A stretch of 64,000 nt of DNA, from the NCBI GenBank assembly GCA_051599415.1, contig AP039714.1, forward strand, positions 62,001-126,000, given 5' to 3'. This document shows positions 8,424-33,700 of the stretch, piece after piece. Each line of letters begins with the position of its first letter. Position 1 is the stretch's first letter. This stretch comes from Savitreella phatthalungensis. Taxonomy: Eukaryota. Below the pieces are notes generated by a model. It saw only the letters and a list, made by a program, of their open reading frames with translations. It was not told the DNA's origin and made no database searches. A program made the translations under genes and the position numbers.

Positions 8424-8481
8424 CCACGAGTGAATCCACGAGTGAATCCACGAGTCAATCCACGAGTCAATCCACGAGTCA
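8424..8481. repeat. 12-bp minisatellite CCACGAGT(G/C)AAT, about 4.8 copies
   Basis: Read directly: two GAAT copies, two CAAT copies, one partial copy. Confidence 0.95.
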
Positions 8482-11400: not shown

Positions 11401-12242
11401 AACTAATCATGTTGTCACGCGCTTTCATTACCTTTCATCGCTCCTGTCTTGCTCGAGTCTTCATACATCCTCTGGACAACGAAATCTTCAACCATTGTCG
11501 ATAGATACCCGAGCTTTTCGCGTACTCTTGCACGCGTCACGATCTGAGCGATCGCGTGAAATGAACCCCTCGATAGTTCATTGTTGTTTGTCGTCATGTC
11601 AACAAACCCAGACAACGTTGTCTCTCGATCCGAACTACGTACTTCCCTTTAAGATATCATGACGTGACAGTCGCCGTGACTACAGAGTCGACGTGGCTGA
11701 GCATTGAATGCACGATTTGACTCACATCGGCGCTCACCCAATCAACGTTCATCCCATTGGTATCACTCACCATCGAAGACGGTCTAACAATTCGTGTATC
11801 CACACGGGCGGACCAGCGAGCGAAGTCTCATTCGACGCGTCTCTATAGCTCACGACTTTCGTCCGCGGCTTTTGTTTTCTCACAATCTAGCGGAGGTGAG
11901 AGTGAGTGGTGTGACTTTGATTTGGCGTTTTTTTCCCTGATGGATGCCGAGTTCGGCTAGATTCTAGACCAGACCAGGGTGCGCATACGATGATCGACCT
12001 AGATAGACGCCACGTCAGGGCCGCTGCGCGCGCGCAGTCACAGTGAAAGAACAAATGGGCTGCCGCGTGAGGTCAGTGGGGTCTGGAAAATTTGGGAGCA
12101 AGCAATCGATCGATCGTTCGATCGTACCTGCGTGGAAACACATCAAAAAGAAAAAATTTCATGCAAGATCGGCCAAGCAAGGGGTAATATAGTGCATATC
12201 CATTTTGCTCACCACACCTCCAACTAGACTGTTGAAGCCAAG

Positions 12243-12293
12243 ACGTCACGTCAGGGTGCGAAGTCACGAGTGACGCATGCGTCAGTGCCGTCA
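12243..12293. promoter_or_regulatory. Cluster of ATF/CREB-type TGACG/CGTCA half-sites
   Basis: Five half-sites in about 50 bp, including the perfect palindrome TGACGCATGCGTCA at 12271-12284. Confidence 0.4.
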
Positions 12294-15200
12294 GACACTA
12301 CGTATTCCGTGTTGTCTGAACGAACTGTGGAGCCTGAGCTCAATAGACCACGAGATCGATCTGACCGGAAGCTGGCGTCATCACACGACCCACCTGACAC
12401 CTCCTTTGCAAATAAATATCGTTGACCTCATGATCAAGCTTCTCTGTGCCACCGATGAACATGGTACGAGATAACAGTGTCAACAAGCAGGGAAAATCAA
12501 CAAAAAGCATGACGCGACGTATACGCGTCATGTGGTGTCGTGGACATAACCCCCTTGATATTCCGCATGCTTGGTTGATCTGCGCAGTCGAGGAGGACAT
12601 GGATCGTCGATTGTGCGTTGGCAAGGCCAAAGTGACACGTGTGGGATATGAGAAGATTTTGGGGGTCTGTGTGGAGAACGTGCCAAGCACATGGATAGTC
12701 GGCGTGCATTCCTTCTGCGGAACAAGCCAAGCCAAGAGATAGCCAAGCCTCGATCATCCTCCTCCTTCGCCACAATCTCTCCACTTGGCCTCCTCACAGG
12801 CACCGCATGCATCCTCGGACGAGGGTCATGCTGATCAAGGAGACACACCGCATGCGACATCACGAACCCTTGCAGATTCTCTCATCCCTATGCACAGAGA
12901 TATCTCCAATCTTGCCTATCCAGAATACCAGCATCCGGGTCATTGTTCCACTCAGAGATCCTACCGACGATCACCATGATAACACCCTGATTGCAAAAGG
13001 TTGTTGACAAGAGATCCCTTGCTTTTGCATTCAATGATAGTCTGACCAACGGATCTATCACTCTCCCCGCCCGGCTGCCCCTCCGTCAGGGCCGATCGAC
13101 ACTGCAGGGTGGACGGGTGCGAGGTTGGATGGGTGGATTTTGTGTGCATATGTGCGCTACTGAGTTATTTCCATACTTCATTTACCTGAGATTTTGATGC
13201 TTCTAAATTTAAACCTGAATATTTTATACACACCCATCAATACATCCAACCCAGCCAGCCAGCCAGCCAGCCGATCCAATGCACAAAATACCAGCCGAGG
13301 CTACCCAACCCCCAGCCATGCAGGTACGTATGCATATTGGCATCGAGGAGAAAAATTAGCCATAGCAGTTGGGGGTCACCCAGAGTCAATGTAAAGATTC
13401 AAAATGCACATCGCCAAATTTAGACGCCAATATTGATTCCCTCACTCTCTCTCAGTCACTCACTCATTCAATCTCACTCACTCACATTATTTCAAAGGAA
13501 TCATCACCAGTCAATCAGCTAGCCACCTGCCAGCATACTGCAAAGCAAATCAATGCATGGAAAAAGAGTCGGGAAGAAGGGTCTATGCACGACATGTTGG
13601 TATGCATAGTATATCAGCTGTACATTCTTCAGAATAGACATGTCTGTATATAGGTAGAGGTAGAATTGACTTTCAATACACACGTGCCCTTCATCTAAAG
13701 TCTATCCGCAATATCACAAAGCATTCGCCAGCAAGGAAGCAGAGGACACAGCATTTACCATCCTCGTGGACCCGACAAAATATGACGAGTCATCCGCGAA
13801 CTCCAACAACATCTTCATAATCCTCCGAGTGAGAGACAATTTCTTGTGTTCGGTCCATGGGGAGTCCCAACCACAATGCAAGTCCAACAATCGACGCATC
13901 CGGGGAAGAAGGTGAACTCGCTCCGTCCAGGGTGATTGACAAAATGCACTCGAGACCCGATTATCACATGTGTCGGACGAGCGATTGAGTAAGTGCGGGT
14001 GAGTGACGACGACTGTCAAAATCAGGGTTAGTGATCCAATGAGAACGCATTCCCGGAGCGTTGGAACGATTGATGTGTATACTACCGTTTCACCTGTCGA
14101 CAGAGAAAGGAAAAGTATGGGGTAGATGGACATGACCACGTACACACGACACAAGTGAATGTCAAGGCTACGACGTAACGGCCACGCTTCCGTGTCCTCG
14201 CCGGAAGCAAACGCTCATCCACAATGTCGGTCAGCTAGCTGACCATAATACACCGGGGATTCCTTCTTTCACCCTATGTCGTACACAAACGTGCGTATCG
14301 AACATATAAAAGACCCAGCACATCGTCTGCCGTACCGCCTGGCAGCCGCCGTCCTCTCTCAGGAGCTTCATCCCGTCAGATTAAAAACCACACCACCACA
14401 GGAATTCGTCCTAGCTGGGATTCATGTCTTACATGGGTGGGGCAGGGAGGCGCGCGGTTGAAGATGAGATGGTGGAATTCCCATTCCCGTTCTCCTTCAC
14501 CCACAGTGCTTCAAACTCTTTTTTTTTCTCTCTCTCTCAAAATGTCGGAGAATTCACGCGGGCGACAAGAAGAATCAGCGTATTTCCGAATTCGGTAATT
14601 CTCTCGATCTCCAATTCTTAAAGAGGCAGTACCACAACACCATCCTCGAGGCCAACTGGCATTGATACAGTGAGGAGGACGGGAAGCCACAAGCCTCAGC
14701 CGTCCATACTCTCCTAGTCAGCGTCAACGATGTTCTTCTAGAATACCTTTAGCGTCACTGTCGCAGGCGCACGCGACTTCCCAATCAGGCTCCCGACCTC
14801 ATCCACCTCTCTTCTGCACCTCTCCACCACAATCACACACACACTGCTCCACTGCCTTACTCACACAGTCGATCGCCTCCATCCGCGGCAACTCTAAGAA
14901 CATCTGTGCCTCTTCCCTCTGACGAAATGACGATCTCAAAAGATCTCCAGTCTGCATCTGGAAGAAGCTCATCCACCCCAAAGCTGATAAATGACTCTTG
15001 ACTCAGATTCCAACGCCTGCTCCCATCCACCTTCGCCTGTGCTCATACCACATGATACGTCCGCATCCTGTGACCCAGTGTCTTTCAGCACATACGCGAG
15101 CGATGACCCTCATTGAGCAAGCGAGATGAGTCTCCAGGACTTTTCTCTTTGCGTGGGATTGATAGCCGTACGTCGGAATCACACAGCGTCAGTCAATCTC

Positions 15201-15886
15201 TTCCATTTCCATGATCATCACTCAACCTGAGAGGCACTCTGCAACGTCCCAAGACGTCACCGAAAAGGGTCTTCCTTCTTCGAAAGTGATCGGCGGCTCA
15301 TACACCGGCTCCTCATCCTGATCATCCGTCCGTCCATCCGTTCATCTGCCAAATCCCTCTATCACTCATCCGGCTTGCCAGTCTCTCTTTCTACCATCCG
15401 AGACGCTTCCCACACATACACGGAAATCTCACATCTACGCACACGTGAACGAATTTGTTGCCCCTTGATCAAGTGAGTGTGTATTTTCATCTACACATCA
15501 ACTGTCATCTCCGACCCATCCGATTTAGATCGACTGGGCTCATGGAGAGTGGTGCGTGAGTGGTGCACCGTCTGACAGATCCTCGGCCATGACAAAGTAC
15601 TTTTCTCCGCCACAATTTCAGAACTAGCGTCTCGAAGAATTCTTTGTTAAATCGTACAGTCCAACCCATCGCATTGAGAAGTTTCCGCTTTCCGCATCCT
15701 TTTCACGTGAGCCGCCCGCAACACTGCGGTAGCCGGATCGTTCATAATCGAATCCCCGTGTTCCGACTCCCGGATCAGAAGCCCAAAAATAAAGATGCAG
15801 GCAATCGCCGCATAGGGGTGGGTCGCAAGCCGTCATCGTTAGAATCATCACAGCTGCTTTTTCTTCCTCTCCTGAATGACCGTATA

Positions 15887-17185: not shown

Positions 17186-17461
17186 CGCGAAGACGCTCGT
17201 GAGCCCTAGACGCCTATATGTGCGTGTGCGAGTGTGTGCGATGTGTTTTGATGATGTGATGACATCTTCCTGCATTCAATGTTTTAATCACCTGAAATCG
17301 TGCATCCGCAATCACCTCAACACCCACACCCCATACGGCTCCACACGACAAGCACATCATCAACAAAGTCACAGGCCTGAAGGACAACCCCTCAGGGATT
17401 GAACACATCTGTACGTGTTCCATGCGTGATTTGTGGGTATGAGCTATTGAAAAGGGCTTCG

Positions 17462-19387
17462 ATGGCGGCGACGAAGTCTGCAAAGCGCTCAGGGAGAAAG
17501 AAGGCCACATCCATTGACAATGACGCTACCCAGGCTCAGCAGACCGAGACAGCACCGACCAGCGCAGCTCAGGAGGGTTCCAAGTCCCTCCCTGCTCATC
17601 AGGACACCCGTCCAAACACGCGAAAGCGCAAAGCCGAGCTTGAAACAATCGTCATTCCCGACAATGACTCTGCTAAAGCGGAGGAGTCCTCGGAACCCGA
17701 GATATTCGCAAACACACCTGCATGGGCACGTCCCCAGAAGTACACGTTGCGACCGTGTAAAGCGAGCGAAACATCTCGAACGCGTCCTTCATGGGCTCAC
17801 GACTCAGTGATGTATAGCTTGCTAGGCGACAAGATGAGCGGCCCTGAATCGCTGCTGTCGTTCCGCCAAACAATGATCGCCCAGGTCTCTGGTCCTGATC
17901 TCACCCTCATCGACAAGTACACCGACCCTGACCGACCCCAAATCCTCGATCCCAACATCTGGCCTCCCTCCACCGAGAAAGTCAGGGTCGCCGAAGTCCA
18001 GACCGACTCAAACCCTCAATCCTCCCAAACCCGGACCGTCCGAGTCGTCAACGCCGACGGCCAAGTCACGAGTGTCCTGTCCCGGAACGAGGTTATGAAC
18101 ACACCTGTCAGCAGCACGCTGTACACTGGGTTGGAGAACGCGTGTGTGGCTTGGCTGCCTCGACCTAAGGGTGCTTCCGAGTGCTGGCTCTTGGTGGGCG
18201 GGATGGTGAGTGGTGAGTCCACGCCGCGATACTACAGCTTCGGTGGGGGTTCCGGTGTGCTGACGCTGTGCTCGTTTGTGGACGGTCAGGTGTGCGTGCG
18301 TGCACGGTTCCACCACCCGTACGGCCCGATCTGGCAGATCAAAGCTCACCCGCACGCCCGCCCCCTCGAATCCACCTCGCTAGCACTCGTCGCTCTCCTC
18401 TGCAACGACGGAATAGTCCGCATCCTCGATATCCCATCACCACCGTCACCACACACCCAGCAAGACCTCCAGCTCCCAACACCCACACACACCCTACAGC
18501 CAGCATCCCGCACACCAAACATCACAGCATGCGACTGGCTACACCCGACCGCCGTCGTCTGCGGCACGGACAACGGCATGCTGATGGTGTGGTCGGTTGG
18601 TGTGCGTGAGTGGTCGGATCGCCCTGTTTGGTGTTCGAGTGTGCACCTCTGCGGTGTTGGGTGTGTGAGTTCTGGGTATCCTTCTGTGGGTGGGAGTGTG
18701 CTGTCGTGTGGGTGGGACGGTGAGACGAAGGTGACGAGCGGTGTGTTTGGTAGGGCGTCAACGCGGACGGTGTCGCGTGCTCGCGTTGGTGGTGGTGTTG
18801 TCGGGTGGTGTGATCTGACAAGACTAGGCGTGTGCGCGGACGAGACAAGAGACCTCCTAGCCTTCTCCCTCAGGCATCACAAAGTAGGTAACCTCAAAAC
18901 CTCAAACCACACCCTCACCGCACTCGCAACAGCACCAACACATCCCTACGTCCTCGCAGCCGACGCAGCAGGCACCCTCACGCTCGTCAACCCTTTCAGG
19001 AGATTCGCAGCAAGGAAGCTCCCGCCACTCACGCGCGTACTCTACAGGCTCGATATCGGCCGTCCAGGGCTCACGCACGATAGAGAGAGGTGGCAGTATA
19101 GGTTCACCGAGCGATTCAACGTCGATGTTGGGGTTGCGAGCGAGCGTACTTACGCCGTCAAGTCCAGTCGGCCGGCCGCGGATGGTGGTGGTGGTGGTGG
19201 TGGTGGTGGCGCGGAGGAGGAGGATGTGAAGAAGGAGTTGGCAAACTCACATGCAGGCACCGTTCTCAAGAGTGTCTTCCCTGAACCACTTGCCGTGAGA
19301 GGCGTCTCCTGGTGTACGGACTACGGCAAGGAACACCTGGTGGCCTCGTGTACGCGCGATTTCCTTCGCGTCGATCGAGTCTCGTAG
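17462..19387 (+). CDS. WD40 protein, probable TFIIIC tauB subunit Tfc6/Sfc6
   Basis: Basic/disordered N-terminus. Propeller segments GPIWQIKAHP, LVALLCNDGIVRILDIP, TACDWL..VVCGTDNG, SCGWDG, PTHPYVLAADAAGTL.LVNP.RR fit the fungal Tfc6 layout. First ATG is at 17462 (the track start is TTG). Confidence 0.65.
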   Translation: MAATKSAKRSGRKKATSIDNDATQAQQTETAPTSAAQEGSKSLPAHQDTRPNTRKRKAELETIVIPDNDSAKAEESSEPEIFANTPAWARPQKYTLRPCKASETSRTRPSWAHDSVMYSLLGDKMSGPESLLSFRQTMIAQVSGPDLTLIDKYTDPDRPQILDPNIWPPSTEKVRVAEVQTDSNPQSSQTRTVRVVNADGQVTSVLSRNEVMNTPVSSTLYTGLENACVAWLPRPKGASECWLLVGGMVSGESTPRYYSFGGGSGVLTLCSFVDGQVCVRARFHHPYGPIWQIKAHPHARPLESTSLALVALLCNDGIVRILDIPSPPSPHTQQDLQLPTPTHTLQPASRTPNITACDWLHPTAVVCGTDNGMLMVWSVGVREWSDRPVWCSSVHLCGVGCVSSGYPSVGGSVLSCGWDGETKVTSGVFGRASTRTVSRARVGGGVVGWCDLTRLGVCADETRDLLAFSLRHHKVGNLKTSNHTLTALATAPTHPYVLAADAAGTLTLVNPFRRFAARKLPPLTRVLYRLDIGRPGLTHDRERWQYRFTERFNVDVGVASERTYAVKSSRPAADGGGGGGGGGAEEEDVKKELANSHAGTVLKSVFPEPLAVRGVSWCTDYGKEHLVASCTRDFLRVDRVS

Positions 19388-19470
19388 TAGTGCTAGAAAG
19401 TATATATAGAGCTACATGTGCCAGACTGAAGACTAATAAGGGTAACCTGCCCTGCGTTAGAAGTAATCAT

Positions 19471-21162
19471 TTATACAGAGGTCTTGTCGGACTCGACCAC
19501 GGTGAGGTTGGTTTTGCCGGCCTTGCTGTCGTCTCCGAGGGATGCGACTTCGGCAACGAGGACGGCCGGGTTGACTGTGATGCCGAGTCTCCTAGCTTCT
19601 TCTGGCGTGAAAGTGCCGAAGACATCGAGCTCGTCGATCGTGTCGATGCCCGGGTATGGGAATGCTTTACAGATGGCATAGTAGACTGCGGCGGAGACGC
19701 AGAAGCCTGCAGGGTATGCGAGGTAGAAGTAGTGTGTTGCGCCGATGGGGACTGAGATGGTCGGTGTGACGTTGTGGACGAAGCCAGGGAGCAAAGGGCC
19801 GAAGCCGACGATCCAAGCGACGAACGACCTCGGGTTGAATCCACCGCTGTACCAGTAGATGCTCGTCGCGTCCGGTTTGTACAGGTGCGAGAGACGGATT
19901 CGACGCTTACAGACAAGCCAGTAGTGGGTGATCATGATGCCGCACATCGGCCCGAGGAAGACTGAGTAAGCGCCGAGGACGGAGAGGAAAACGGATGCGG
20001 TCGAGAGCAGCTGCCATGGTTGAAGGATGACGGAGAGAATCAAGGTGAGGTAGGCGCCCCTGCGGATGTTGAGGTACCTTGGGACTAGACCTGCAAAGTC
20101 CATGCCACCGGAGAAGGCGTTGTCGAACGCGTTGATGGCCAGCTGGGCGACGACGAAACCGAGGCCGAGGAAGAAGCAGCCTGCACGAGCTGTTGGAGTG
20201 TAACCACGAGCGAGGATCCGCTCTGCGATCGTCGGTGGATTCCACACCACTTCGCCAAAGACCTGCTGCGTCGCAGACGCACAGATACAGCCGAGCAGAG
20301 GAACCACCGTTCCAAAGACCGGGATCGAAAGCCATTGACCCATCACCTGGTCTCCCGGCCTGCGGGCGAATCGGGAGTAGTCTGGCTGATTGGAGAGGCC
20401 GACTGCGATCGAGCCGATGACGGACGTGATTCCCTGGACGATGCCCCAGCCGTACTCGTCCGAGGTTTTGAGTGTGGCGCCGGCAGAGAGCAGCGGCCCC
20501 GGACCACCTGCCTCGTGCACCGCCCAGGCGGTCAGACCGACGACGGTGACGAGAGTGACCGCGTTACTGACGACGAATGCGCGTTTTGTCTTTTCCACCG
20601 GCACATACACGCACGCGCACATGAGGAAGTTGAAGATAACCCATCCGATGAAGGTCTTGGTGTGCATGTGGGTCGAGGCTGGCATGGTGTTGGTCATGTG
20701 CTGGAAGCTCGGGAAGATGGAAGACAGGACGATCGAAACGCAGATTCCGCCGGTCCAGCTCTGGACGGCCATCCAGACTGCGGAGAGGATGATTCGCTGG
20801 ACCACCTGCACGTAGCACCCATACATACCCCAGATGTACCTCGAGATCACTGTGAACCCAATGTGCCATTCCGCTCCGGGCCATCCGTTGAATACCGCGA
20901 CAAAGGCAATGATGAGTCGGGCAATCACTGTCGAGATCATCGCCTGCCACACGGACAGTCCGAGCGCCACAAGGGCAGAACCTGTCGTCATGCTGTACAA
21001 GGTCAAGTTGTTGAGTGCCCAGAAGAAGACAAAGTAGGTTGTCGTCCAGGTGCGTCTGTGTGGAGGTAGAGGTTTGATGTCATCGTTGATCCAGGCATTA
21101 GCCTTGTCAATGTCAGAGGAACTCAGACGAAGCACCGAGTCGGCGCGTCGAAGGAAGTCCAT
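19471..21162 (-). CDS. NCS1 (Fur/Dal4-like) nucleobase/allantoin/hydantoin cation symporter
   Basis: 563 aa, about 12 TM segments. DIKPLPPHRRTW, GWPGAEWHIGF..SRY.WG.YG, NQPDYSRFA, WNPP, GGMD..L.PRYLNIRRG, QPWQLL, YSVFLGP..GIM..HY. Confidence 0.93.
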   Translation of the reverse strand: MDFLRRADSVLRLSSSDIDKANAWINDDIKPLPPHRRTWTTTYFVFFWALNNLTLYSMTTGSALVALGLSVWQAMISTVIARLIIAFVAVFNGWPGAEWHIGFTVISRYIWGMYGCYVQVVQRIILSAVWMAVQSWTGGICVSIVLSSIFPSFQHMTNTMPASTHMHTKTFIGWVIFNFLMCACVYVPVEKTKRAFVVSNAVTLVTVVGLTAWAVHEAGGPGPLLSAGATLKTSDEYGWGIVQGITSVIGSIAVGLSNQPDYSRFARRPGDQVMGQWLSIPVFGTVVPLLGCICASATQQVFGEVVWNPPTIAERILARGYTPTARAGCFFLGLGFVVAQLAINAFDNAFSGGMDFAGLVPRYLNIRRGAYLTLILSVILQPWQLLSTASVFLSVLGAYSVFLGPMCGIMITHYWLVCKRRIRLSHLYKPDATSIYWYSGGFNPRSFVAWIVGFGPLLPGFVHNVTPTISVPIGATHYFYLAYPAGFCVSAAVYYAICKAFPYPGIDTIDELDVFGTFTPEEARRLGITVNPAVLVAEVASLGDDSKAGKTNLTVVESDKTSV

Positions 21163-24100
21163 CTTCTCCTTCGGTGATTGAGTGATTAGAGACTGAGTAG
21201 ATGATACTTTCGTGGATGTCAGATGGCGCTCGATGTGTTTGGGAAGGCGAGGAGTTCGACTTCTTATAGAGACTGTAGGTCGAGTTCAGGGTAAAGGTAG
21301 GCCTAATGTCGATGACCTTATCGAAGTGACAAGATTGTGACGTGAAGATGATAGGCCTCTGTCGAAGGTGAAATGGCTAAGGAAAGCGTCCGGCGAGTAG
21401 GGGGACGATACGAATGAGGTCTGAATGAGACAGATAAGGAGGTGAGCAGTCTCGACAACTTGAGTTGGGTTGTGGAATTTGTCCAGATGGGCGCGCGTGA
21501 CTGAAGTATGCCCTAAAGCAGAGGGAAGTGTAATGAGCTCGCTAGACAGTTAATCTTACAAGGTCGTGAAGTGGACAAGGCCAAGATGCAGACCGTGCCA
21601 ATGACACGAGCTGCGGGACACGATAGCCGATACTACGGCTCTGAGACTTTTGGGTCCTGCCGGGTTCCTCTGCTTTGATACGTTCGTAAAGGGCGCGTCG
21701 AGTCTGAAGAGTCACTCGAAGATTGCTTGACTTGACCTGGGCTAACCTGAGCCGGCGGATCTGCAATGTCCGATGAACTAAGAAGTATGTACGAGATGGA
21801 AAGGCTTCTGCCGCGTATCTGACCTTGTTGGCTTTCTGGAGTTGTAGAGGAATCTGGGAGAATCTGAAAGTGGATCTCGTGACCTGCCACAGTCTGTGCG
21901 GATGAGCGCGGGGGATAAGCGTCGGCTGGCTGCAGGAACGTCGCGCTTAGATGCGACACGAGGTCACTTTCATCTCCGGATGTTCAGTCGGCGGCGAGGA
22001 AGTTCAGAGATCAAATTTCCAGGGCAAGGATACTGGATAGATTGGTGACCAGGTGGGCAGGTGGTGAGTAGGCGGATATCCAAGGTTGAATTGCCGGTTC
22101 GGCGGATAAATGAGAGAAGCACGCCTACACGAGAGAAGAGATGGTCAGGTGAGAGACTTACAAGGTCTTTCAGACTTGACCTGGTTGATTGCAGGAGCAG
22201 GTAGACTCGATGATCTCTTCTCGGTAATGTTTACGATTCCCAGCTGATAAGGAAAGGGATTAAGATCGAGAAGAAGATCCACGAGCAAATAGGGCACAAG
22301 TGGGTGAATGGCAGTGACTCAATCGATGATGAGCAGATTGAGGTGAGCAAATCCACGATCCACAAATGGATGCGAAAGAGGAGATATGTGAGAAGGATCT
22401 TGGGTCACTCTGTCGTGAGTCAAGATCAGTGGAGAGAGGCGATGAAAGGAAGGCAGAGATAGAGAGAGATGAGTGAAAGGTGGCGTGCGATCTAGTTGAG
22501 AATAAGTCTGCTCCTGATCCTGGATCTAATCCCCCGCGGACGACAAGAAGAGATTAGGAGGAGAGCGTCTGTCGCTTGGCGGGAGAGATGATGCAGGTGC
22601 AGGAACTCTGACGCTGGCGCGACTGAAGTTGTACAATCGATGAGGAAGCCACGAGTGGATATGCGAGAGGGAAATGCGAGAGGATGAGAGCGCCTCCCGT
22701 CTTGTCTTTGCCCTTGAGGTCTGACCCTGTCCTGTGGTTTAGGGGAGCATCTATAATATCGGTCTGCAATGGTTCACATTCCCATATCACTCGATCGTGA
22801 TCTCTCTCTTCTCTGTCTCTCTCTCTCTAAAATTAAAGTTTGTTGGACGTTAGATCAGCTTAATCTGGGTATATAGCTTGACAGGATGCGCTGGACGTGA
22901 TAACGCAATTGACAATAGATTTTAATTGACTTTTATGAAATTACTTGATTTGAAGAAATTGATTTACTGATCCATCGATTGATTTAGGCTGTTGGATGAA
23001 ATATTCATTCAAGGTCAAATTTCATCCTCTTCAGATTGAATTCCACTCCCTCTGCTACGGCTATTTTGAACATGATTCACTCCACCATTTCCACTTCCAC
23101 TTTCACTTTGCTCAATCAAATTGCAAAATGAATTGTGCCTGTGAGTACTGACTCTCTCCTTTGAAACATGAGCATTGGAGGCGAGACGATACCCACTAAA
23201 TTAACCAAATCGGGATAAGTTAGTGACGTACATATTGTATAGATGCATATCATTCACTAATTTATCCTATTCAGGCTTATCTCCATCTTTATCAACTCAC
23301 AAATTTATCCTTTCCTGGATTTCATCTCTCATCGAATCGCATCAGATCGCTTCTACTCCACAGATCTGCGGCACATGATATCTTCCTCTTCCATTCATTT
23401 CGTACCCTTTTTATCCGGGGTGGAACCTACTGACAATCGATTATCATCATCATCTCCAGTGGATGTCGACTGTAATCTCTTGGCGATATGGAAAACTACC
23501 GATGTGCCGGTGGGGCGGAATTGTAAGATCCACACAAGCCAATCATCCCACTCGAGGAGAATTGGTTTGAAGGTGGAACGAATGAAGGTATGGCAACAAA
23601 TCATCTATCTCAAACACACCTGCATGAGCCATCCTCTCAGCCCTGCAGACCATCACAGCACAATACAGCACGCGCACAGCCATACGAGCATCAGCACACG
23701 AGCATCGATTGATGAAACGCATTGCAATCTATTCGACACAAGGATTAATGTCTCGCCTAATGACACATTACCCGCCCATACACATGTTGCAGCCCTTCCT
23801 GCACGTCTCTCTAGCCGAGAAGTGAAGCATTAACCGTCATATCCGAACCCTCCTTCTGTATTCGAAGCTTGAGTGCGCGATCTCTATCTCCGTCAATCAT
23901 CCGAACATCTTCATCTCACTTGAACCCACTTCCAGCTTTCACACAACCGGATAATCTAAGGGAGACACAGACACGCACGCGGCAGCACCACGAGCTAGTC
24001 GCATCAATCTGCGTCCTCATTCACATCCAAATCCACATCCACATCCACGATTCACGTTCCACGCTTACAGTTTACACGCAAGAGAAGTTTCTACGACGGA

Positions 24101-25311
24101 ATCCTTCCAGCTTCAATCTCCCAAAAGTCGAGTCTTTAGCCGGCGTGAAGCTCTTATCTATCATTACGGGAATCGATCAGAGGGTCACAGAGGGTCACGC
24201 GGGTCATCAGCTTACGAGGAGGTTGATCGGTACCAACTCCTCGAGTCATCCCCCATCTCCAGTACGCTTCCGTCAGTTATCAAGCTGCTCGGTCCATCCA
24301 TCCAAGCACCAGGGGACAACTTCCAATTGTCGTCTGATCCTTCAATCTCTCTGTCTCTCGTATAGTGTAGACAGTCGCAAGTCCACAGCTATACCTATCT
24401 CGATTCAGCAATCTGGCCCAGAGTAACTATTCCAGCTACAACGACATCTCGTATCAGTATCAGCCACGGGCATCAGTAAAGGCGGAAGGGATAACGTGAC
24501 CTGCTCGAGAGTAGGTGCTAGGTCAGCAGTTGGAACGTGACTATTCTGTCTGTCACTGTCACCGCCACTCAATCTGTCTTTGACCTCCACCTGCTAGGAG
24601 AGTTCCTAAAGATAGCAACCAAAGGCAAGTCATTCAAGCATTAGTCTCGCCAAGGTCGACAACTTCTGGTCCTTCTCCTGCAGTCTCTTCAAGAGCAAGT
24701 CAACAGAAGATACGATTCTACTCGGCCATCTAGGCTGCCTATCTGACTCCGAATTCACTATCTATCTGACTATCAGTCGCTCTGGCTGTCTCCTTCTGTT
24801 CTTTCTAACCTGCGACACATCCTCCGACAGAGACATCCATCTCGGCTCATCTCATCTTGGACACAGCTTCTATTCCTGGTCACCAAGACAACTCTCTCCA
24901 CAAAAAGCTTCCACCTAACATTACTTATCTCATCTCCATCCCGACCTGCTGTTCATTACCGAGTACAGTTCCCGTAAGTGCACTGCCCACATACCAGACG
25001 CCAACAGTCACAGAATCTGCACGTCTGATTCATCTTCTCCTTCTCAACCATACCAGCAATTCCACCATTCATTCTTCTGAGTCCTCTCTCTCCTAGTCTC
25101 CACTCCCACTCGCACTCTTACTCGCCTCCCGCGCTCCTATAAGACCTTTGTTCTTCCCTCCCTTCAATCCACTACTTGACTCGACTAGATTCTCCCAAAT
25201 CCAACTGCTCATCGGCTACACTTCAGCTGCCCTTCAGCTACACATCGGCAACACGTCGGCTACGCATCCGCCGAGCATTACTGACAACTATCAGCTGCTC
25301 GTCAGCTTCTC
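21163..25311. promoter_or_regulatory. Divergent promoter/leader region rich in GATA-factor sites, with central AT-rich core (about 22830-23330)
   Basis: GATAAG/CTTATC at 21317, 21433, 21914, 22246, 23214, 23276, 24153 and 24924, with about 18 GATAA/TTATC pentamers in total. TATAAG near each gene (21263-21268 minus, 25138-25143 plus). Confidence 0.6.
24974..25294 (+). other. Candidate 5'UTR intron of the hydantoinase-DUF917 gene
   Basis: GTAAGT donor at 24974, branch TACTGAC at 25279-25285, acceptor CAG at 25294, 17 nt before the ATG. Same layout as the tma7 intron 3' end (TACTGACAATTCAG). Confidence 0.5.
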
Positions 25312-28300
25312 ATGACCCAGACCATGTCTCTACGTATCGGTGTCGATGTCGGTGGCACAAACACCGATGCCGTTTTGCTCGATGCAGCACAGAAGGATTC
25401 TAATTCAAGAGGCGTCCTAGCCTCGTACAAACACGCCACAACAGCAGACGTCACAGACGGCATCGAAAGAGCAATCCGATCAGTCATCGCCTCCTCTGCC
25501 ATCAATCCTGCACAGATCTCTGCCATCACTATCGGCACAACTCACTTCATCAATGCAGTCCTCGAACGGGATAGATCGAGATTGCGTCCAGTCGCAGTAA
25601 TTCGTCTCTCGGCGCACTTCACACGCTCCACCCCACCGTTCAGCAACTTTCCAGCAGCATTACGGGACATCATGTGCGGCTACTACACCTACTGCAAGGG
25701 CGGCTGCAACATCGATGGCTCTCAGATTGCTCCGATTGACGAAAACGAGATCCGTGAGAGGGCACGGGAAATTCGAGCACGTGGTCTCCGCACCGTCGTC
25801 GTCACGGGAGTCTACTCTCCCATCGACGAGACATTCAAGCAGGAAGAGCGATGCGCTGCGATACTCCGAGATGAGATTCCCGGGGTCAACGTTGTCTGCT
25901 CTAGAGATATCGTCAATGTCGGCCTGCTCGAACGTGAAAACGCCTCAATCCTAAATGCCTCTATCCTGGAATTTGCACGTGCAACCATCGCCTCCTTCAG
26001 GCGTGTTCTGACCCGTCTTCAACTTGGCGGCTGCGCTCTGCTTCTTACACAGAATGATGGCACGATTGTCAGCGCGTCCGACGCTGCACGGACTCCCATC
26101 AAGACCTTCTCCTCCGGAGCCACAAATTCCATGAGAGGCGCTGCGTATCTGGCCGGCATCAGTCCCGAACAACAGCGTGGCGGCACGATTGTGGTCGATA
26201 TCGGCGGCACCACATCTGATGCCGGCATGCTCCTCCCTTCAGGCTTTCCCCGCCAAGCTGCAGCATACGTCGATGTGGCAGGCGTCCGACTGAATTTCTC
26301 CATGCCTGATCTTCACTCGATCCCGCTCGGTGGCGGCTCCATCGTTCGCCATCTTTCCGACGGCACAGTCACAGTAGGTCCCGACTCGGTCGGCTACAAG
26401 CTGACGAGCGAGGCACTCATCTTCGGCGGCAAGACACTAACCACGTCTGATGTCACCGTGCGAGGATCCTGTGGTAAGGTGGACATGGGAGACGCTTCTC
26501 TCGTCCAGAGCCTTCCAGAGGTACTGGTGCAAGATGCACAAGAACGTATCACCTCTATGCTCGCAGATGTCGTCGATCAGATGAAGGTGTCGCCAGAAGA
26601 TGTTCCTGTCATGCTTGTAGGTGGAGGATCTGTTATCGCGCCGACGCACATTCCAGGCGCTTCTGCTGTCGTTCGACCGCCATTCCACGATGTGGCCAAC
26701 GCCGTCGGTGCTGCGATCGCCAAGATCTCCGGCACGATCGACGTGATTGAGAATGTCAATGGTAGATCCGTTGATGCCGTCGTGGCCACGGCGAAAGAGA
26801 GAGCCATTGAGCGCTGTATTGCCGCAGGTGCTGATCCTCAAACCGTCACGCTTGCCGATGTCACCACGATCCCAATCCAGTATGTGACCAATCAACTGCG
26901 TGTCATCGTCAAGTGTGTTGGTGAGCTCGACCTCGCGCGCCTCGGCACCGCGGACGACAGCGAGCTCGAAGACGATAGCCCAACTGACACTGCCTCCGAA
27001 ACGCCGTCGAAGGCCTCGGCTTTGGAGGCAGACGACTCCATCATCGATCTCTCCACTTACAAGCCATACATCACGGCCGACCGCCAATGGATCTTATCAG
27101 AAACCGATCTGCGCTTCCTATGTGTGGGCACCTATGTGCTCGGCTGTGCCGGCGGCGGCTCTCCATACCCCGAATTCCTACAGCTGCGAGACATGGTTCG
27201 GCGAGGTCACAAGCTGCGCGTTGCCGAGTGCGAGAGTGTCAAGGATGACGACGTCGTTCTGTGGGGAGGTCACATGGGCTCGCCCGCAGTCTCTGTCGAA
27301 CGCCTCGGCGGCGAAGAGGTTGTCGACGCCATGCGAGAGCTTCTCGACCTCCAGAGAGTGCCACATGTTTGCCCTCCAAATGACAGCACACCAAAACCCA
27401 CGAACAAACCTGGGTATGCAGCTGTCATGTCTCTCGAGATCGGCGGTGGCAATGGCCTCCAGCCCTTGATCGTCGGCTCTTCTCGCTTCTTCGACACGCC
27501 CACCCTCGACTGCGACTGGATGGGACGTGCATACCCGACGTACTACCAGACGACCCTCTCAGCGTACGCACCTGGCTTGCTCGTTCCTGCGGCCATTGCG
27601 TCGGGCGATGGCAAGACAGTTGTGATGACACGAGCGCCTGACGACACCTGCGTGGATGTGTGCTTGCGCGCGGCCTGTACGGAGATGGGATCTCGTGTGG
27701 GCATGGCCGCCGCGCCTACGACGGGCGACCTCGTCAAGAAGTACAGTGTCCGCAACACCGTCTCGCTCGCCTGGAGAATCGGACGCACCATCCTCTCGTG
27801 TCAGCAAAACGCTCAGACCTCCCGCGTCGCAGACGCCCTCATCGACGCCCTCGGCGGCCCGACCACAGCAAAGAAGCTCTTCACAGGCAAAATCGTCCGT
27901 GTCGAGTCGCGGCTGTTTAAAGGCCACTCATACGGATCCATCGTGATTGAGCCGCTGTCTAACGCTGAGAACGATCACGTGTTGCCTGATCTCCCGCTGG
28001 CTGCTGTCACTGCTGCCGCATCTGGTCGCACCGGCGCGCGCTCGACCACGACAACAGACGCCTCGAGCGTAACAGGTTCCGATGGGTACGACTCTGACGC
28101 ACGCCCATCCACCGCCTCGTCCACATCGACAATCTCTTCACGCCACTCCGCAGGCACCCGTACCCCGCCTGCACCCACGGCCGACTCGGAAGGCAGCTAC
28201 TACTCTCCCCTGCGATCGACGGGTGTCGTCCGAATCCCATACAAGAACGAGAACATCCTGTGTGAGCACTTTGGGTCGCTGGAAGCAATGGACGCCGCTG

Positions 28301-28596
28301 GAGACGACGCGGTCGGCGATATCCTCTGCAGCGTGCCTGACCTGATCTGCGTGCTCGATGGTCGGTCTGGTGAATCGCTCGGGGTGCCAGAGTTCAGGTA
28401 CGGTCTGAAGGTGGTGGTGCTCGGCATCACAGGCTCACCACTCTGGAGCGCGACAGACGAAGGACTAGCGCTAGGAGGACCAGCAGCATTCGGCTACGGT
28501 CCAGACCAACAACCACCTAGACAAGTCAACCACCATCCGCTAGGCAAATACATCGAGCCATCGAGCGTGATCGCCGAGTACGCGAGCCACAAGTAG
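25312..28596 (+). CDS. Hydantoinase A/oxoprolinase domain fused to C-terminal DUF917 domain
   Basis: 1094 aa. N-terminal half: GVDVGGTNTDAV, GTTHFINA, RENASILNA, TFSSGATNSMRGA, DIGGTTSD, GGGS, ANAVGAA. C-terminal half DUF917 motifs: LGCAGGGSPY, GHMGSPAV..E, EIGGGNG, DCDWMGRAYP, NEN, SVPDLICVLD, EFRYG, GGPAAFG. Confidence 0.9.
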   Translation: MTQTMSLRIGVDVGGTNTDAVLLDAAQKDSNSRGVLASYKHATTADVTDGIERAIRSVIASSAINPAQISAITIGTTHFINAVLERDRSRLRPVAVIRLSAHFTRSTPPFSNFPAALRDIMCGYYTYCKGGCNIDGSQIAPIDENEIRERAREIRARGLRTVVVTGVYSPIDETFKQEERCAAILRDEIPGVNVVCSRDIVNVGLLERENASILNASILEFARATIASFRRVLTRLQLGGCALLLTQNDGTIVSASDAARTPIKTFSSGATNSMRGAAYLAGISPEQQRGGTIVVDIGGTTSDAGMLLPSGFPRQAAAYVDVAGVRLNFSMPDLHSIPLGGGSIVRHLSDGTVTVGPDSVGYKLTSEALIFGGKTLTTSDVTVRGSCGKVDMGDASLVQSLPEVLVQDAQERITSMLADVVDQMKVSPEDVPVMLVGGGSVIAPTHIPGASAVVRPPFHDVANAVGAAIAKISGTIDVIENVNGRSVDAVVATAKERAIERCIAAGADPQTVTLADVTTIPIQYVTNQLRVIVKCVGELDLARLGTADDSELEDDSPTDTASETPSKASALEADDSIIDLSTYKPYITADRQWILSETDLRFLCVGTYVLGCAGGGSPYPEFLQLRDMVRRGHKLRVAECESVKDDDVVLWGGHMGSPAVSVERLGGEEVVDAMRELLDLQRVPHVCPPNDSTPKPTNKPGYAAVMSLEIGGGNGLQPLIVGSSRFFDTPTLDCDWMGRAYPTYYQTTLSAYAPGLLVPAAIASGDGKTVVMTRAPDDTCVDVCLRAACTEMGSRVGMAAAPTTGDLVKKYSVRNTVSLAWRIGRTILSCQQNAQTSRVADALIDALGGPTTAKKLFTGKIVRVESRLFKGHSYGSIVIEPLSNAENDHVLPDLPLAAVTAAASGRTGARSTTTTDASSVTGSDGYDSDARPSTASSTSTISSRHSAGTRTPPAPTADSEGSYYSPLRSTGVVRIPYKNENILCEHFGSLEAMDAAGDDAVGDILCSVPDLICVLDGRSGESLGVPEFRYGLKVVVLGITGSPLWSATDEGLALGGPAAFGYGPDQQPPRQVNHHPLGKYIEPSSVIAEYASHK

Positions 28597-28627
28597 AGTC
28601 TTAAACAGAGAACGAATACGATTAAAA

Positions 28628-30292
28628 CTAGGTGATGACTGTGGGTTTGGATCTGCCAGTGAACTTCTCGAGCTGGAGGATGTGTAGTGCTGCTTGAATG
28701 AGTGACTTCAAGCCTTCCTGAGCATCGAGCGTGTACTTGGACTCGTCCGTCTCGTACTTTTCGACGTAGAGTCTGATGGTTGCGCCTGAGGATCCCGTTC
28801 CGGAGAGTCTGACGACGAGTCTGTCTCCTCCCTTGAACTTGATAAACAGCCCCTGGTGCGAAGCGACCTCGCCGGTGACCACATCCGTGTACTCGAAGTC
28901 GCCAGCCTCAGCAACCTCGAACCCATCGACTGGTGAGCTGCCCACAAACTCAGGAGACTTGATCTGGCTTGCGACATGGTCGATGACCTTGTTTGCATCA
29001 GCACTCTCGATCTCCTCGTAGTCGTAGCGGGAGAAGAAGGTCCTGCCGTAGGTCTTCCAGAAGTCTAGGAGGATATCGTTAATGCCGAACGGTTTGTCCT
29101 GTGCAGCGACGCCTGCGATGATATTCAGCCAGGCCACAATCGCCCAAAGTCCATCCTTCTCCCTGATATGGTTCGAGCCTGTACCAAAAGACTCCTCGCC
29201 GCAAATCGACAGCCTCTTGTCGTCAAACAGCGAGCAGAAGAACTTCCAGCCTGTGGGGACCTCGTAGCACGTAAGTCCCTGCTTCTTTGCGACGAGATCG
29301 AGTGCTCCAGAGGTCGGCATCGACCTCGCCAGCCCATAGACTCCCTGATTCTTGAAATAGGGGATGAGTTTTGCGTGGTGGGCGATGACGGCGACGCTGT
29401 CTGAGGGTGAGACGAAGGCGTGGGTACCGTAGATCATATTCCTGTCACCGTCTCCGTCGCTCGCCGCTCCAAAGTCGATCGCCTCCTCGTCCACCTTGGA
29501 CACGAGCGAGTGTGCGTAGGTCAAGTTCGGGTCAGGGTGACCGCCACCGAAATCCTCAAGCGCAACGCAGTTCTGAGTGCTCCCCTCACCAAGCCCAAGC
29601 TCCTCACCAAAAATAGCCTTACCGTAAGGACCGGTCACACCACTCAAACCATCAAACAACACCTTGTACCCCGAGTGAGACCCCAAAAACGACTTGATCA
29701 ACCCAAAGTCGAAGATCTCCTTCAGCATCGATACATAGTCAGCCGTCTGGTCAATCACCTCGACTTTGAGCTCGCCATAGGTCTGCTCTCCGAGGGTTGA
29801 TAGATCGATGTCCGGGATGTCAGCCCACTTGTACTCGCCTATGGTTGTGGATGTTTTGTAGATTGCGTTTGTGACTGATTCTGGGGCTGGTCCGCCGTTT
29901 GCGAGGTTGTACTTGATACCAAAATCGTTTTCGGGTCCTCCTGGGTTGTGCGATGCGGTGAGGAGGATACCGCCAGTGGCAGAGCGCTTGCGGATGATGT
30001 GGGACGTTGCAGGGGTCGATAGGATACCTGCCTGGCCGATGATCAGCTTCTTCACCCCGTTGCCAGCGGCGATCTTGCCGATGATCTGGATCGCCTGCTT
30101 GTTGAAGTACCGGCCGTCGCCACCGATCACCAACACCGCCCCAGAAGCCGAAGGCTCCACGGCAGACAGGATGCTCTGCACAAAGTTCTCCGTGTATCCA
30201 GGCTGCTCAAACACCTTCACCTTCTTACGAAGGCCTGAGGTGCCCGGCTTCTGCCCATCAAAAGGCTTTGTCTGCTTCGTCGTGATCGACAT
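28628..30292 (-). CDS. pgm: Phosphoglucomutase
   Basis: GQKPGTSGLRKK, catalytic TASHNPGG, metal loop DGDGDRNM, GEESFGTGS, RLSGTGSSGATIRLY, C-terminal PTVIT. Conserved start MSITT at 30292 gives 554 aa. Confidence 0.97.
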   Translation of the reverse strand: MSITTKQTKPFDGQKPGTSGLRKKVKVFEQPGYTENFVQSILSAVEPSASGAVLVIGGDGRYFNKQAIQIIGKIAAGNGVKKLIIGQAGILSTPATSHIIRKRSATGGILLTASHNPGGPENDFGIKYNLANGGPAPESVTNAIYKTSTTIGEYKWADIPDIDLSTLGEQTYGELKVEVIDQTADYVSMLKEIFDFGLIKSFLGSHSGYKVLFDGLSGVTGPYGKAIFGEELGLGEGSTQNCVALEDFGGGHPDPNLTYAHSLVSKVDEEAIDFGAASDGDGDRNMIYGTHAFVSPSDSVAVIAHHAKLIPYFKNQGVYGLARSMPTSGALDLVAKKQGLTCYEVPTGWKFFCSLFDDKRLSICGEESFGTGSNHIREKDGLWAIVAWLNIIAGVAAQDKPFGINDILLDFWKTYGRTFFSRYDYEEIESADANKVIDHVASQIKSPEFVGSSPVDGFEVAEAGDFEYTDVVTGEVASHQGLFIKFKGGDRLVVRLSGTGSSGATIRLYVEKYETDESKYTLDAQEGLKSLIQAALHILQLEKFTGRSKPTVIT

Positions 30293-30717: not shown

Positions 30718-30743
30718 TCATGACTGGTTTGGCGGCATCGGCG

Positions 30744-30784
<41 letters not shown>

Positions 30785-33700
30785 GGGGCAGGTCCAGCGC
30801 CGGACGCTCCTGTGGAGGTGCCGCTGGCACTGCCGCTGCCGTTGCCGTTGCCGGTTTGGTTGATGTGTGAGGAGAGGCTCTGGAAGAGTGCTTGGATTTC
30901 AGGTGTCTTCTGAACGAATTCGAGTTGCCAGAATCCATACTTCTGGTTCTTGAGGAGCTCTGTGAAGGTGATGAGAAGTCCCCAGGGATGCGGTCGGTGA
31001 CAGATTAGCCGCTCTAGGAGAACTCTGGCGATTTGCTCTTTCGCCACCAGGGCGTCATCACTCGTGCTCGTGTTTGTGCTTGTGGCTTCCTCGCTCGCTG
31101 GGCTGCCGACAGCGGAGAACAGGGATAGCAAGACGCAGCTGAAGAAGTAGGTGTGCCTGTTTGGATACCTGAGCTGATCGACGACCGCACACAGGAGGGT
31201 GTACCTGCCTGGTGGATCTAGCGCCTTGAACAGTTCCTGGATCAGTCCGACCCAGGGTGAGTTGAGGTCGAATTGCGGCGGTGAGGTATCATTGCCGACT
31301 GCCTGGACGCCTGCATAGAGGACGAGCGTTGCGAGAAGGGTCGGGTCGACGTGTGATCCGTTCTTCTCGTTCTGGGCGTCCTGCTGGTGATGCTGCTGCT
31401 GGTGGTGATGCCTGGTCATGGCACGGATGACCTTGGCGACAGCGGTCGCACTGCCACTGTAGATGTAGTTGTTGACGTGGGTCATCACTTTCCCGGCACT
31501 CAGAATTTGGTCGAGGTCAGCGGCGATGCGCGGCGCCTGTGCTGACTCTGGCAGACGATCGACTTTCAGACCTGGCAGGAACGGGTCTGGCAGGAGCATG
31601 TGCCGCGGGAAGGCGCTGAGGATCAGATTTCGTAGCTGGATTGCCGTCGCCGGCACGTTGATGCAGAACGTGTGGTGGTTGTCCGTGAGGAAGTTGGGGA
31701 AGTCGTTGAGGAGAACGAGCATAAGGCGCAAGGTGGCCTGGTACATCATGCGTGTGTGCGCTGGCAGCTGCTCTTCCGGTGCGCTGACGGCCTCTAGCTG
31801 AGGGGAAAGGAACCTCAACAAGGTCGACAGAAGATCTGCATACTTGTTCCAGGACTCTTCGTCGGACAGAAGCGCCGGCAGCAGGAATCTGTGTGAGATG
31901 ATGGTGATCCAGGCGAATGTGAACTCTGGGAAATGGTTCGGCTGAAGGATCAGGAGGATGTGGACGATCGAGTGGAGGGCTGGCTGGTAGACTTGTCCTA
32001 GGGCGGCCTTCGCTCCATTCAGCTCTGCGAGCAGGGAGGTGAAGAAGCGGGAGAAAGGTCGCTGCAAGGTGGCATCCCTGGTCTTGTCGCGCGCGTGCGC
32101 ATACACGATCGCTACCATCGCTAAGATGACCTCGAACGACTCCACTCGCTCAGCCACCGTCAACGACGGCGATGAGTTTTGTAGGAGAAGCGCTGTGAGC
32201 TTCGCGACGCCGTCCATTGCATTGAAGACGCTCATGGGGGCTGCGGAAGGTGATGGCGGTGGACGCAAGGCTGTGTCGCAGGCATGCTCAATGATGGTGC
32301 GGAAGAAGAGCAAACAGTTGTCGCGGTCGGTGAGCAGTCCAGAGCGATCGAGTTGGAGGACGAAGGCGCTCTGGAGTTTTGGCGAGGTGGCTGCGTGATT
32401 GAGGAGATGCATCCATTCCTGGAACACGCCGAGAACTTGATCCTTTGGCGGGGCATCGATCACCGAGCGAGACTGGTCAAGCGCTCGGAGAAGTCCCCCG
32501 ACGAGATCGATGTGCGCTACGGACGTCAGGGCCTCGAGCGTAGCTGCGAAGTCGCTCCGCAGGGCTGCCGGGCTGTCAGCCAGCAGAACTTCTCGTAGGA
32601 GCTCGACGGCGAATTCGAGCGCACCTTGACGCTGGAGCTGGACGTGCTTTGCAAGCTGGACGTCGAATTCCATGGGCACGACGATCCCGGCACGCATGAG
32701 CTGGCGGATGATTGGCGCATTGTACTGCGTGGGTCGTCCGAGTGGACCAGCCAGACGGAGACGTCCCTGTAGGTCTTCATGGACATGTCGATGAAGGCTG
32801 AGAGGGTCGTGGTGAGACATTGCGCCGCGAGCTCGTGGTGAGGCATCTTGAAGAGCAATTGGCAGACGCGCTGAGCACATGTCAGAGAGCGCTCGTCGCC
32901 TCGCATGCCGGCCAGCTGCGGCACCTGTGATAGGATTTGTTGCTGGAGAGAGCGAAGCTGTGAGTCCGCGTCATCGAGTGATGACGCCGTCTGCTTCCGT
33001 GCCAAGTTGTCGAGCTCCGTGATCTGGCCAAGGAGCTGCTCGAATGTCGAGGCGGACTGCTGCTCGTTGCGGTATCGGACGGCAGGGTCGACGGCCTCGA
33101 GAGCGGACGCAGCGGCGCGCGAGTCGTCCTTCGCATAGTACGCCGCTGCATCGTTCGCCGTGCGAGGAATTCGTGCAAAGTCGCTGTAGAGTGCGACCTG
33201 ATCGTTCGTAAGCCCTGTCGGCTGGAGACGCAGTGGGTCTGGCAAAGGATATGCGTGGCGAGGTGCCGTCTGATCGACAAAGCGCTGACCCGACCGCGCC
33301 TCCAGATGACGACGGCGTGCCTGGTAGCTGTCCCTCAGACCCTCATCGATCTCCGTAACCGCCTTTTCCATAGCTGCCTTTTCGACGATCGCACAGGCAG
33401 CGTCCAGGTTATCGGAGATCAGCTGAGACAATAGGAGCTCTCCATCCTGAGTGAGTCCATCGTAGCCACTCTGTGCGAGCACTGCGCGCAGGTTGCTCAT
33501 GAAGGCTCCGCGCAGCGGTTCCTTGCACGTGACAGTGGCCAAGCTGCCTGCGAGATTCTGATTCATCACATGAGCTGCCTCTCGGAGTTTCTGAACGTCT
33601 TCCTCAAACGCAAAGTCCTTGGTGACGAGCTGCGAGGTGGAGATACTGGCGATAGCCACGCTGCGCTCGACCACGGGCAATATGAACTCTCGAACGGCAC

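Follow-up and report, generated by a model that had tools for sequence, protein, structure and literature searches.

In yeast, the Fur-type allantoin permease Dal4 is clustered with catabolic genes in the DAL cluster, and conserved clusters of GATA-factor sites are typical of fungal nitrogen-catabolic genes. In 5-oxoprolinase, N-methylhydantoinase, and caprolactamase, the HyuA-type half spends ATP on activating the ring carbonyl. The partner enzymes of Mhp1, the hydantoin permease of the Microbacterium hyu cluster, are ATP-independent hydantoinases. As for DUF917 proteins, a 2023 preprint states that they had been experimentally uncharacterized until then (10.1101/2023.09.25.559410). In this work, we analyzed a 64,000-nucleotide stretch of the Savitreella phatthalungensis genome (contig AP039714.1, positions 62,001 to 126,000; hereafter the window), in which a gene for a Fur-type NCS1 permease (P0001) lies head to head with a gene for a fusion protein (P0002) that joins a HyuA-like ATPase half to a DUF917 half.

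We propose that the two genes form a conserved fungal module under nitrogen regulation, which would import a hydantoin-like cyclic amide and open it with ATP, with DUF917 replacing HyuB; we give this reading a probability of about 0.55. The permease gene occupies positions 19471–21162 on the reverse strand (563 aa, no intron needed) and the fusion gene positions 25312–28596 on the forward strand (1094 aa), both ranges being given with the stop codon. The divergent intergenic region between them (21163–25311) spans 4149 bp and has an AT-rich core and 22–23 HGATAR sites. The open reading frame (ORF) map thus places both genes exactly at the outer coordinates, and in the divergent orientation, that had been given in an earlier note made from the DNA sequence of the window.

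Profile searches of P0002 found four Pfam domains. The hydantoinase-A/oxoprolinase (ASKHA ATPase) half, at 25333–26601 on the forward strand, contains Hydant_A_N (PF05378; residues 8–188, E-value 4.4e-28, 98.6 bits vs. a gathering score of 25.2) and Hydantoinase_A (PF01968; residues 208–430, E-value 2e-22, 80.2 bits vs. 22.9). The S-Me-THD half, at 27103–28506 on the same strand, contains S-Me-THD_N (PF06032, formerly DUF917; residues 598–773, E-value 1.1e-47, 162.5 bits vs. 27) and S-Me-THD_C (PF20906; residues 778–1065, E-value 3.8e-56, 189.9 bits vs. 27). There was no match to Hydantoinase_B among the Pfam domains of the protein, and the reading of the earlier note, with DUF917 in the place usually taken by hydantoinase B, is borne out. 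The N-terminal half has its HyuA Pfam families in common with 5-oxoprolinase, N-methylhydantoinase, caprolactamase, and the acetophenone/acetone carboxylases. However, where the classical HyuA/HyuB enzymes have HyuB, the window protein has DUF917, and its HyuA half is short (about 540 aa). By sequence, this half matched the Protein Data Bank (PDB) entries of N-methylhydantoinase (7hk5; E-value 1.5e-20), acetophenone carboxylase gamma (5l9w_B), and 5-oxoprolinase (6yra), and it also weakly matched the caprolactamase alpha model. The DUF917 half gave no meaningful match to the PDB by sequence (best E-value 0.87).

The same four domains are present in all 120 relatives listed, which range in length from about 970 to 1290 residues and come from Taphrinomycotina, many classes of Pezizomycotina, and Agaricomycetes (Gloeophyllum and Jaapia). 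The nearest named relatives are Protomyces lactucae-debilis and Saitoella, with identities of 63% and 58%, respectively, for the fusion and of 61% and 54% for Vps35. This places the host in the Taphrinomycotina, at some distance from any fungus sequenced so far. Databases label the fusion ‘hydantoinase/oxoprolinase’ from its N-terminal half only. In an alignment of 21 fusion proteins, the mean column identity is 49%, and the HyuA half has invariant glycine-rich motifs at D12–D19, D296–D303, and G437–G439, which we take to be the ATP-binding motifs of the ASKHA fold. The DUF917 half also has invariant motifs, and the family motifs are intact in the window protein. Two low-complexity inserts, both modeled as disordered, are missing from all aligned fungal and bacterial relatives. 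One is a lineage-specific Ser/Thr-rich low-complexity segment inside the S-Me-THD C domain (residues 888–961, positions 27973–28194 on the forward strand), which is missing from 20 fungal relatives and 23 bacterial DUF917 proteins and has a predicted local distance difference test (pLDDT) score below 50. The other is a Pro-rich segment of the DUF917 half (residues 684–699, positions 27361–27408 on the forward strand) that is private to the window protein. A quick maximum-likelihood tree built on the HyuA halves separates 21 fungal from 27 bacterial sequences by a long branch (Shimodaira–Hasegawa-like approximate likelihood ratio test support of 100), and the window protein groups in it with two relatives and then with Protomyces.

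A structure model of the DUF917 half (pLDDT 75.8, predicted template modeling score [pTM] 0.78) resembles the structural-genomics entry 2o3i, with a Foldseek E-value of 2.8e-15 and, in VIA-align, a Z-score of 37.0 and a root-mean-square deviation of 2.6 Å over 346 residues of 2o3i_B. This entry is the sole strong match, as the runner-up structure reached a Z-score of only 5.6. A HyuB-like fold was considered for this half and set aside, as no hydantoinase B chain occurs among the Foldseek (PDB) and VIA-align matches listed, by which a distant likeness is not excluded.

For the way in which the two halves may work together, we turned to the separate bacterial proteins. A complex of the HyuA-like and DUF917 proteins of Acetobacter nitrogenifigens was modeled with a score of 0.83 in three runs, whereas the best of three controls scored 0.00. 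Among solved complexes, 51 of 78 attain the mark used for this score, as do 2 of 108 mismatched pairs. The contacts agree by at least 89% between runs, and the partner pLDDT is 89. Translated to the numbering of the window protein, the modeled interface consists of D135, G204–L206, R314, R326, P521, Y524, and R530 on the HyuA side, and of G656–P658, E663, P742, R786, N979, and G1031 on the DUF917 side. It is composed of the most conserved motifs of both families, which fits a composite active site. Since the sole DUF917 structure found is that of a lone protein, the model is unlikely to reflect memory of a known complex. The prediction, which is not a measurement, supports binding within the bacterial pair, and an active site made up jointly by both halves would be probable.

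The linkage of the two genes recurs in other fungi. Among the best 120 matches of each protein search, consecutive locus tags for the fusion and an NCS1 permease were found in a Dothideomycete (MBLNU459_g5688/g5687), Apiospora arundinis (PG995_012652/012653), Capronia epimyces (A1O3_09436/09435), and a Teratosphaeriaceae species (LTR53_008235/008236). Nine more cases, among them Saitoella and the nearest relatives of both window genes, have longest contigs of equal size for the two proteins. A scan of metagenomes with the fusion alignment provided 76 loci, namely 18 of fungal type and 58 of prokaryote type. At least 1 kb of upstream sequence is available in 14 of the 18 fungal-type loci, which collapse to 12 distinct ones because three are near-identical. 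In seven of these 12, an NCS1 orthologue with 40–56% identity to P0001 lies upstream on the opposite strand, across a gap of 634–1852 bp. The earlier note had named lack of linkage in other fungi as an outcome that would speak against a functional pair; linkage was found in the four named fungi and in these seven loci. Locus tags and metagenome loci are independent kinds of evidence and they agree, and the pairing is not due to chance. The recurrence of the same pair in many fungi suggests that it is probably a real nutrient-scavenging unit. No third conserved gene was found beside the pair when ORFs from 11 fungal loci and 30 kb of the window were clustered. Two fungal loci that have the fusion and lack the permease (L029 and L070) both contain, downstream, genes for a mitochondrial carrier, a pyridine-nucleotide oxidoreductase, and a fungal rhodopsin-domain protein; these may represent a lineage or a paralogue with a broken pair.

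The divergent promoter is conserved as well. None of the four sequencing runs listed for window positions 19400–28700 is from RNA; all four are DNA contigs. In the window, the gap between the two genes has 12.8 GATA cores and 5.5 HGATAR sites per kb, which is the top of the 13 ORF-free gaps of at least 500 bp. Its 52 GATA cores compare with 34.9 ± 6.0 expected under a first-order Markov model fitted by halves (reached in 2 of 1000 simulations) and with 41.2 ± 6.2 under a second-order model (47 of 1000). For HGATAR, the second-order expectation is 18.2 ± 4.0 against 22 observed (215 of 1000), which is not significant. The description of the region as GATA-rich in the earlier note therefore stands as far as density is concerned, but the statistical excess is modest. 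The GC skew is positive to about 22.9 kb and negative beyond, with a GC content of 0.40 in the AT-rich core at 23.0–23.5 kb. On either side of this switch, the gap is rich in pyrimidines on the sense strand of the adjoining gene, and the GATA sites go along with this strand composition and orientation. Positions 25212–25268, 44 bp 5′ of the fusion start codon, contain a tandem repeat with a 22-nt unit (2.6 copies, 74% matches).

The orthologous intergenic regions are more informative. The seven regions from the metagenome loci together have 64 HGATAR sites, compared with 19.6 ± 4.5 expected (reached in 0 of 1000 simulations), and each of the seven exceeds its own expectation. The density is 9.8 sites per kb, vs. 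2.86 per kb in controls taken from ORF-free parts of these loci (23 stretches, 17,809 bp), and the most widely shared 7- and 8-mers in these regions contain GATA. These patterns suggest that the divergent promoter is probably under nitrogen control by a GATA factor. Control of the UaY type, as in a purine regulon, was also considered; sites of the form CGG-N6-CCG are absent (0 in all eight intergenic regions).

For the permease, P0001 matches PF02133 with an E-value of 1.6e-91 and 307.7 bits (cut-off 23.5) over profile positions 1–439 of 440, and its score against TIGR00800 is just below the cut-off (349.8 vs. 353.1 bits). Judged by these profiles, it is a full-length and intact member of the NCS1 family. 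Its scores fall far below the cut-offs of both allantoin permease models, NF008476 and NF047713 (166.7 bits vs. 620 and 135.4 vs. 800, respectively). Orthologues among the matches listed have 49–68% identity to P0001 across 90–99% of its length, and their names in the sources are inconsistent, being uracil, thiamine, or purine-cytosine permease, or ‘aclS.’ The pair resembles the yeast DAL cluster in that a Fur-type NCS1 gene lies beside that of a putative nitrogen-catabolic enzyme under probable GATA-factor control, but it differs in the low allantoin permease scores and in an enzyme partner of another, uncharacterized kind.

Closer comparison is possible with Mhp1, which aligns with P0001 at an E-value of 2.3e-16. 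According to a description of its binding site, Trp117, Gln121, Gly219, and Asn318 of Mhp1 stack on or hydrogen-bond the hydantoin ring, and Trp220 also lines the site (PMC4195764). In the alignment, the substrate-site residues of the hash motif and TMH6 (Trp117, Gln121, Gly219, Trp220, and Asn318) correspond to W130, Q134, G238, W239, and N348 of P0001; of these, W130, Q134, W239, and N348 are invariant among 20 orthologues and G238 is at least 90% conserved. The two proteins are thus alike in transporter family and in ring-contact residues, whereas Mhp1 is bacterial and sodium-coupled and has Gln42 where P0001 has T54. These residues would be compatible with a small polar ring as the solute of the permease.

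In prokaryotes, the two halves of the fusion are encoded by separate genes. In the 58 prokaryote-type metagenome loci, a DUF917 gene (about 365–395 aa) comes right after a HyuA-like gene (about 515–545 aa), and the two often overlap. When bacterial and archaeal genomes were scanned with the DUF917 alignment, 79 loci were obtained, mostly from Alphaproteobacteria; these come from the best 80 of 604 confirmed matches, so that the sample leans toward close relatives of the DUF917 domain in the window. Of the 79 genome loci, 73 have an ORF for a HyuA-like protein no more than 8 kb away from DUF917. The operons contain the same two families in the same order as the fusion, with 27–37% identity in the best segment of the DUF917 part, but as two polypeptides rather than one. 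The fungal fusion descends from such a two-gene hyuA-DUF917 operon of prokaryotes. At L014:5251-7503, at L038:10307-12474, and in many genome loci (matches of about 2.1 kb), two tandem DUF917 paralogues follow the hyuA-like gene.

As in fungi, an importer gene is found alongside the prokaryotic operons, although the kind of importer is usually different. The following neighbor counts come from samples biased by the search patterns and, in GC-rich loci, from crude ORF calling. In the metagenome loci (n = 58), the neighbors include TonB-dependent receptors (23), LuxR/MalT-type regulators (22), ABC (ATP-binding cassette) ATPases (14), Opp permeases (11), Asp/Glu/hydantoin racemases (8), and Amidohydro_3 proteins (5). 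In the genome loci (n = 79), they include ABC ATPases (49), family-5 solute-binding proteins (SBP_bac_5; 33), Opp permeases (27), LuxR-type regulators (22), and AroM (17). The importers are therefore usually of the ABC or TonB kind, and AroM and racemase-family genes are usual companions. An NCS1 permease was found in only 2 of the 79 genome loci and 5 of the 58 metagenome loci, and it is of the CodB type. In these samples, the claim in the earlier note that bacterial operons commonly link an NCS1 permease with DUF917 and HyuA is overstated. The A. nitrogenifigens strain DSM 23921 (L106) provides one such case, in which hyuA, DUF917, and NCS1 form a tight operon isolated in a neighborhood of housekeeping genes. 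The bacterial NCS1 partner resembles CodB and other cytosine permeases (151–178 bits against NF008241) and has 26% identity to P0001 over 159 residues. This distance indicates independent recruitment of different NCS1 subfamilies by fungi and bacteria. In Komagataeibacter swingsii (L119:3001-5939), the hyuA-DUF917-NCS1 operon is immediately preceded by two ureohydrolase genes of the arginase family, which hints at a guanidino- or imino-substituted ring as the substrate in that lineage.

Based on these comparisons, a possible course of events in the fungal module may be outlined. The Fur-type NCS1 permease would import a small polar ring, of the hydantoin, ureide, or cyclic-amide kind, when good nitrogen sources are scarce. 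By analogy with the ATP-spending enzymes introduced above, the HyuA-like ASKHA half would bind ATP and activate the ring carbonyl, and the DUF917 half would then carry out the water-dependent step at the activated ring carbon, which is the role of HyuB in classical enzymes. General amidases would then complete the breakdown of the ring-opened product. In this outline, we infer that the permease carries the substrate of the enzyme, that ATP serves to activate the ring, that the reaction is a hydrolysis, and that nitrogen is scavenged, as well as the class of the substrate. The earlier note had described a minimal two-gene pathway of uptake and catabolism. The linked pair and its divergent GATA-rich promoter are indeed conserved in fungi, but two genes cannot be the whole of a nitrogen-releasing pathway.

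Several observations weigh against this proposal. Five of the 12 distinct fungal loci (L004, L010, L013, L029, and L070) have no NCS1 gene in the available flank, where the neighbors are unrelated. The gap in the window is two to six times as long as those of its relatives, and its own GATA excess becomes weak when the simulations match the trinucleotide composition. The ring-contact residues that P0001 has in common with Mhp1 are also found in NCS1 carriers of other solutes, so that they do not discriminate among compounds or name one. The usual partners of the bacterial enzyme are Opp/Dpp-type ABC systems, as indicated by the SBP_bac_5 proteins, or TonB receptors, which hints at peptide-like substrates; the fungal substrate may differ. 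The complex was modeled for the bacterial pair and not for the window protein. The AlphaFold model of the whole window protein (built with 21 sequences) has a pLDDT of 69 and a pTM of 0.54, from which the arrangement of the domains in the fusion cannot be read. The DUF917 domain of P0002 also falls far under the NCBIfam cut-offs of both named desulfurases, with 44.4 bits (cut-off 450; E-value 1e-11) against NF058532 and 35.5 bits (cut-off 440; E-value 5.5e-09) against NF058529. Finally, no assay of a HyuA-associated DUF917 enzyme was found in the literature searched.

Some of these observations would be expected if the two genes were co-located but functionally separate, with an ordinary nucleobase, allantoin, or vitamin NCS1 transporter sharing a bidirectional nitrogen-regulated promoter with an enzyme of another substrate. 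The various names given to the permease orthologues, the generic nature of the ring-contact residues, and the five loci that have the enzyme gene without a permease would all agree with such an arrangement. However, the divergent orientation is kept across distant fungal classes, and the prokaryotic enzyme is also flanked by importers, among them the independently recruited NCS1 of another subfamily. We consider functional separation rather unlikely. Chance adjacency of the two genes in the window is hardly credible; the very long gap and the unrelated neighbors are what could be expected from it, but the same pair in the same orientation was found in the seven metagenome loci, and in the four named genomes by locus tags.

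A different chemistry may also be considered, in which the DUF917 half removes sulfur or an exocyclic group from a thiohydantoin-type ring, such as breakdown products of ergothioneine, for salvage or detoxification. The S-methyl thiohydantoin and thiohydantoin desulfurases (NF058532 and NF058529) have the domains PF06032 and PF20906 in common with the window protein and, as judged by the family names alone, act on a hydantoin-type ring, from which they would displace a sulfur substituent. These Pfam and NCBIfam names agree with the statement in the earlier note that a DUF917 protein was described as an S-methyl-thiohydantoin desulfurase, and the window domain does match both models weakly. Yet scores that far below the cut-offs indicate that this domain is no orthologue of the named desulfurases, from which it also differs by its fusion to an ATPase. 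Furthermore, the HyuA-like ATPase is obligatory (found in nearly all of the bacterial and archaeal genome loci and fused here), and a thiol, being a good leaving group, could be displaced without it. Nitrogen control is also what the conserved GATA-rich promoter speaks for. Taken together, a desulfurase-like role is improbable.

Our preferred reading, the ATP-dependent opening of an imported cyclic amide, could be extended further. The HyuA-like and DUF917 proteins might constitute a distinct and ancient class of ATP-driven ring-opening enzymes, with DUF917 in the place of HyuB at a composite active site, and the fungal fusion and its dedicated importer might let cells feed on a very stable peptide-derived cyclic amide, for example a cyclic dipeptide (2,5-diketopiperazine) or a hydantoin that is 5-substituted or has a 2-imino group. 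This extension is speculative, and we hold it to be unlikely as a whole. It is suggested by the peptide-type ABC importers, AroM, and racemase-family genes that surround the bacterial enzyme. It is also suggested by the preprint cited above, in which DUF917, hydantoin racemase, and AroM are reported to be enriched in cyclodipeptide-oxidase clusters (10.1101/2023.09.25.559410). In addition, several permease orthologues are named after AclS, which is described as a putative transporter of a diketopiperazine toxin cluster (PMC10086836). If true, eukaryotes would have their first described catabolic route of this kind.

In the literature searched, which did not cover subscription journals, we found no paper on the fungal fusion or on its pairing with a permease. 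One study of Clonostachys rosea lists a ‘hydantoinase/oxoprolinase’ and an NCS1 ‘uracil permease’ among six genes that were induced against both fungal preys (PMC5999205). These genes are at most candidate orthologues of the pair, with gene identifiers that are far apart, and they were not used as support.

The surroundings of the pair in the window are unrelated to it, as the earlier note had also observed. The flanking genes encode a RING-variant protein, a 662-aa ORF without a Pfam match, phosphoglucomutase, and Not1. The 662-aa ORF (17399–19387, forward strand) is convergent with the permease gene, ends 84 bp from its stop codon, and is without a counterpart in the related fungal loci. A scan of the 4149-bp gap (21163–25311) found no family-supported ORF, tRNA, Rfam match, or notable repeat. 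The Not1 gene (30718–37103, reverse strand) appears as two overlapping ORFs (30718–32880 and 32526–37103), both with CCR4-Not Pfam domains, and an intron or a frame change is likely near 32.5–32.9 kb. Farther to the left, 7.2 kb (8723–15886) contain no ORF of at least 200 aa, and the longest stop-to-stop frame has 166 aa. This stretch may be intron-rich or gene-poor, and short CT-rich and 12-nt tandem repeats are found at its left edge (8239–8481).

Both protein families and the fusion architecture are already present in databases. What the fungal case adds is that the fused enzyme is kept beside a dedicated Fur-type permease across fungal classes, with a conserved GATA-rich divergent promoter between them. 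The independent recruitment of another NCS1 subfamily in bacteria and the modeled interface of conserved motifs are further additions. Among fungal enzymes that lack an assigned function, the fusion is one of the more widely distributed. If the proposed ring-opening activity is true, it would assign a reaction to the ATPase-partnered DUF917 proteins and add a nitrogen source to fungal physiology.

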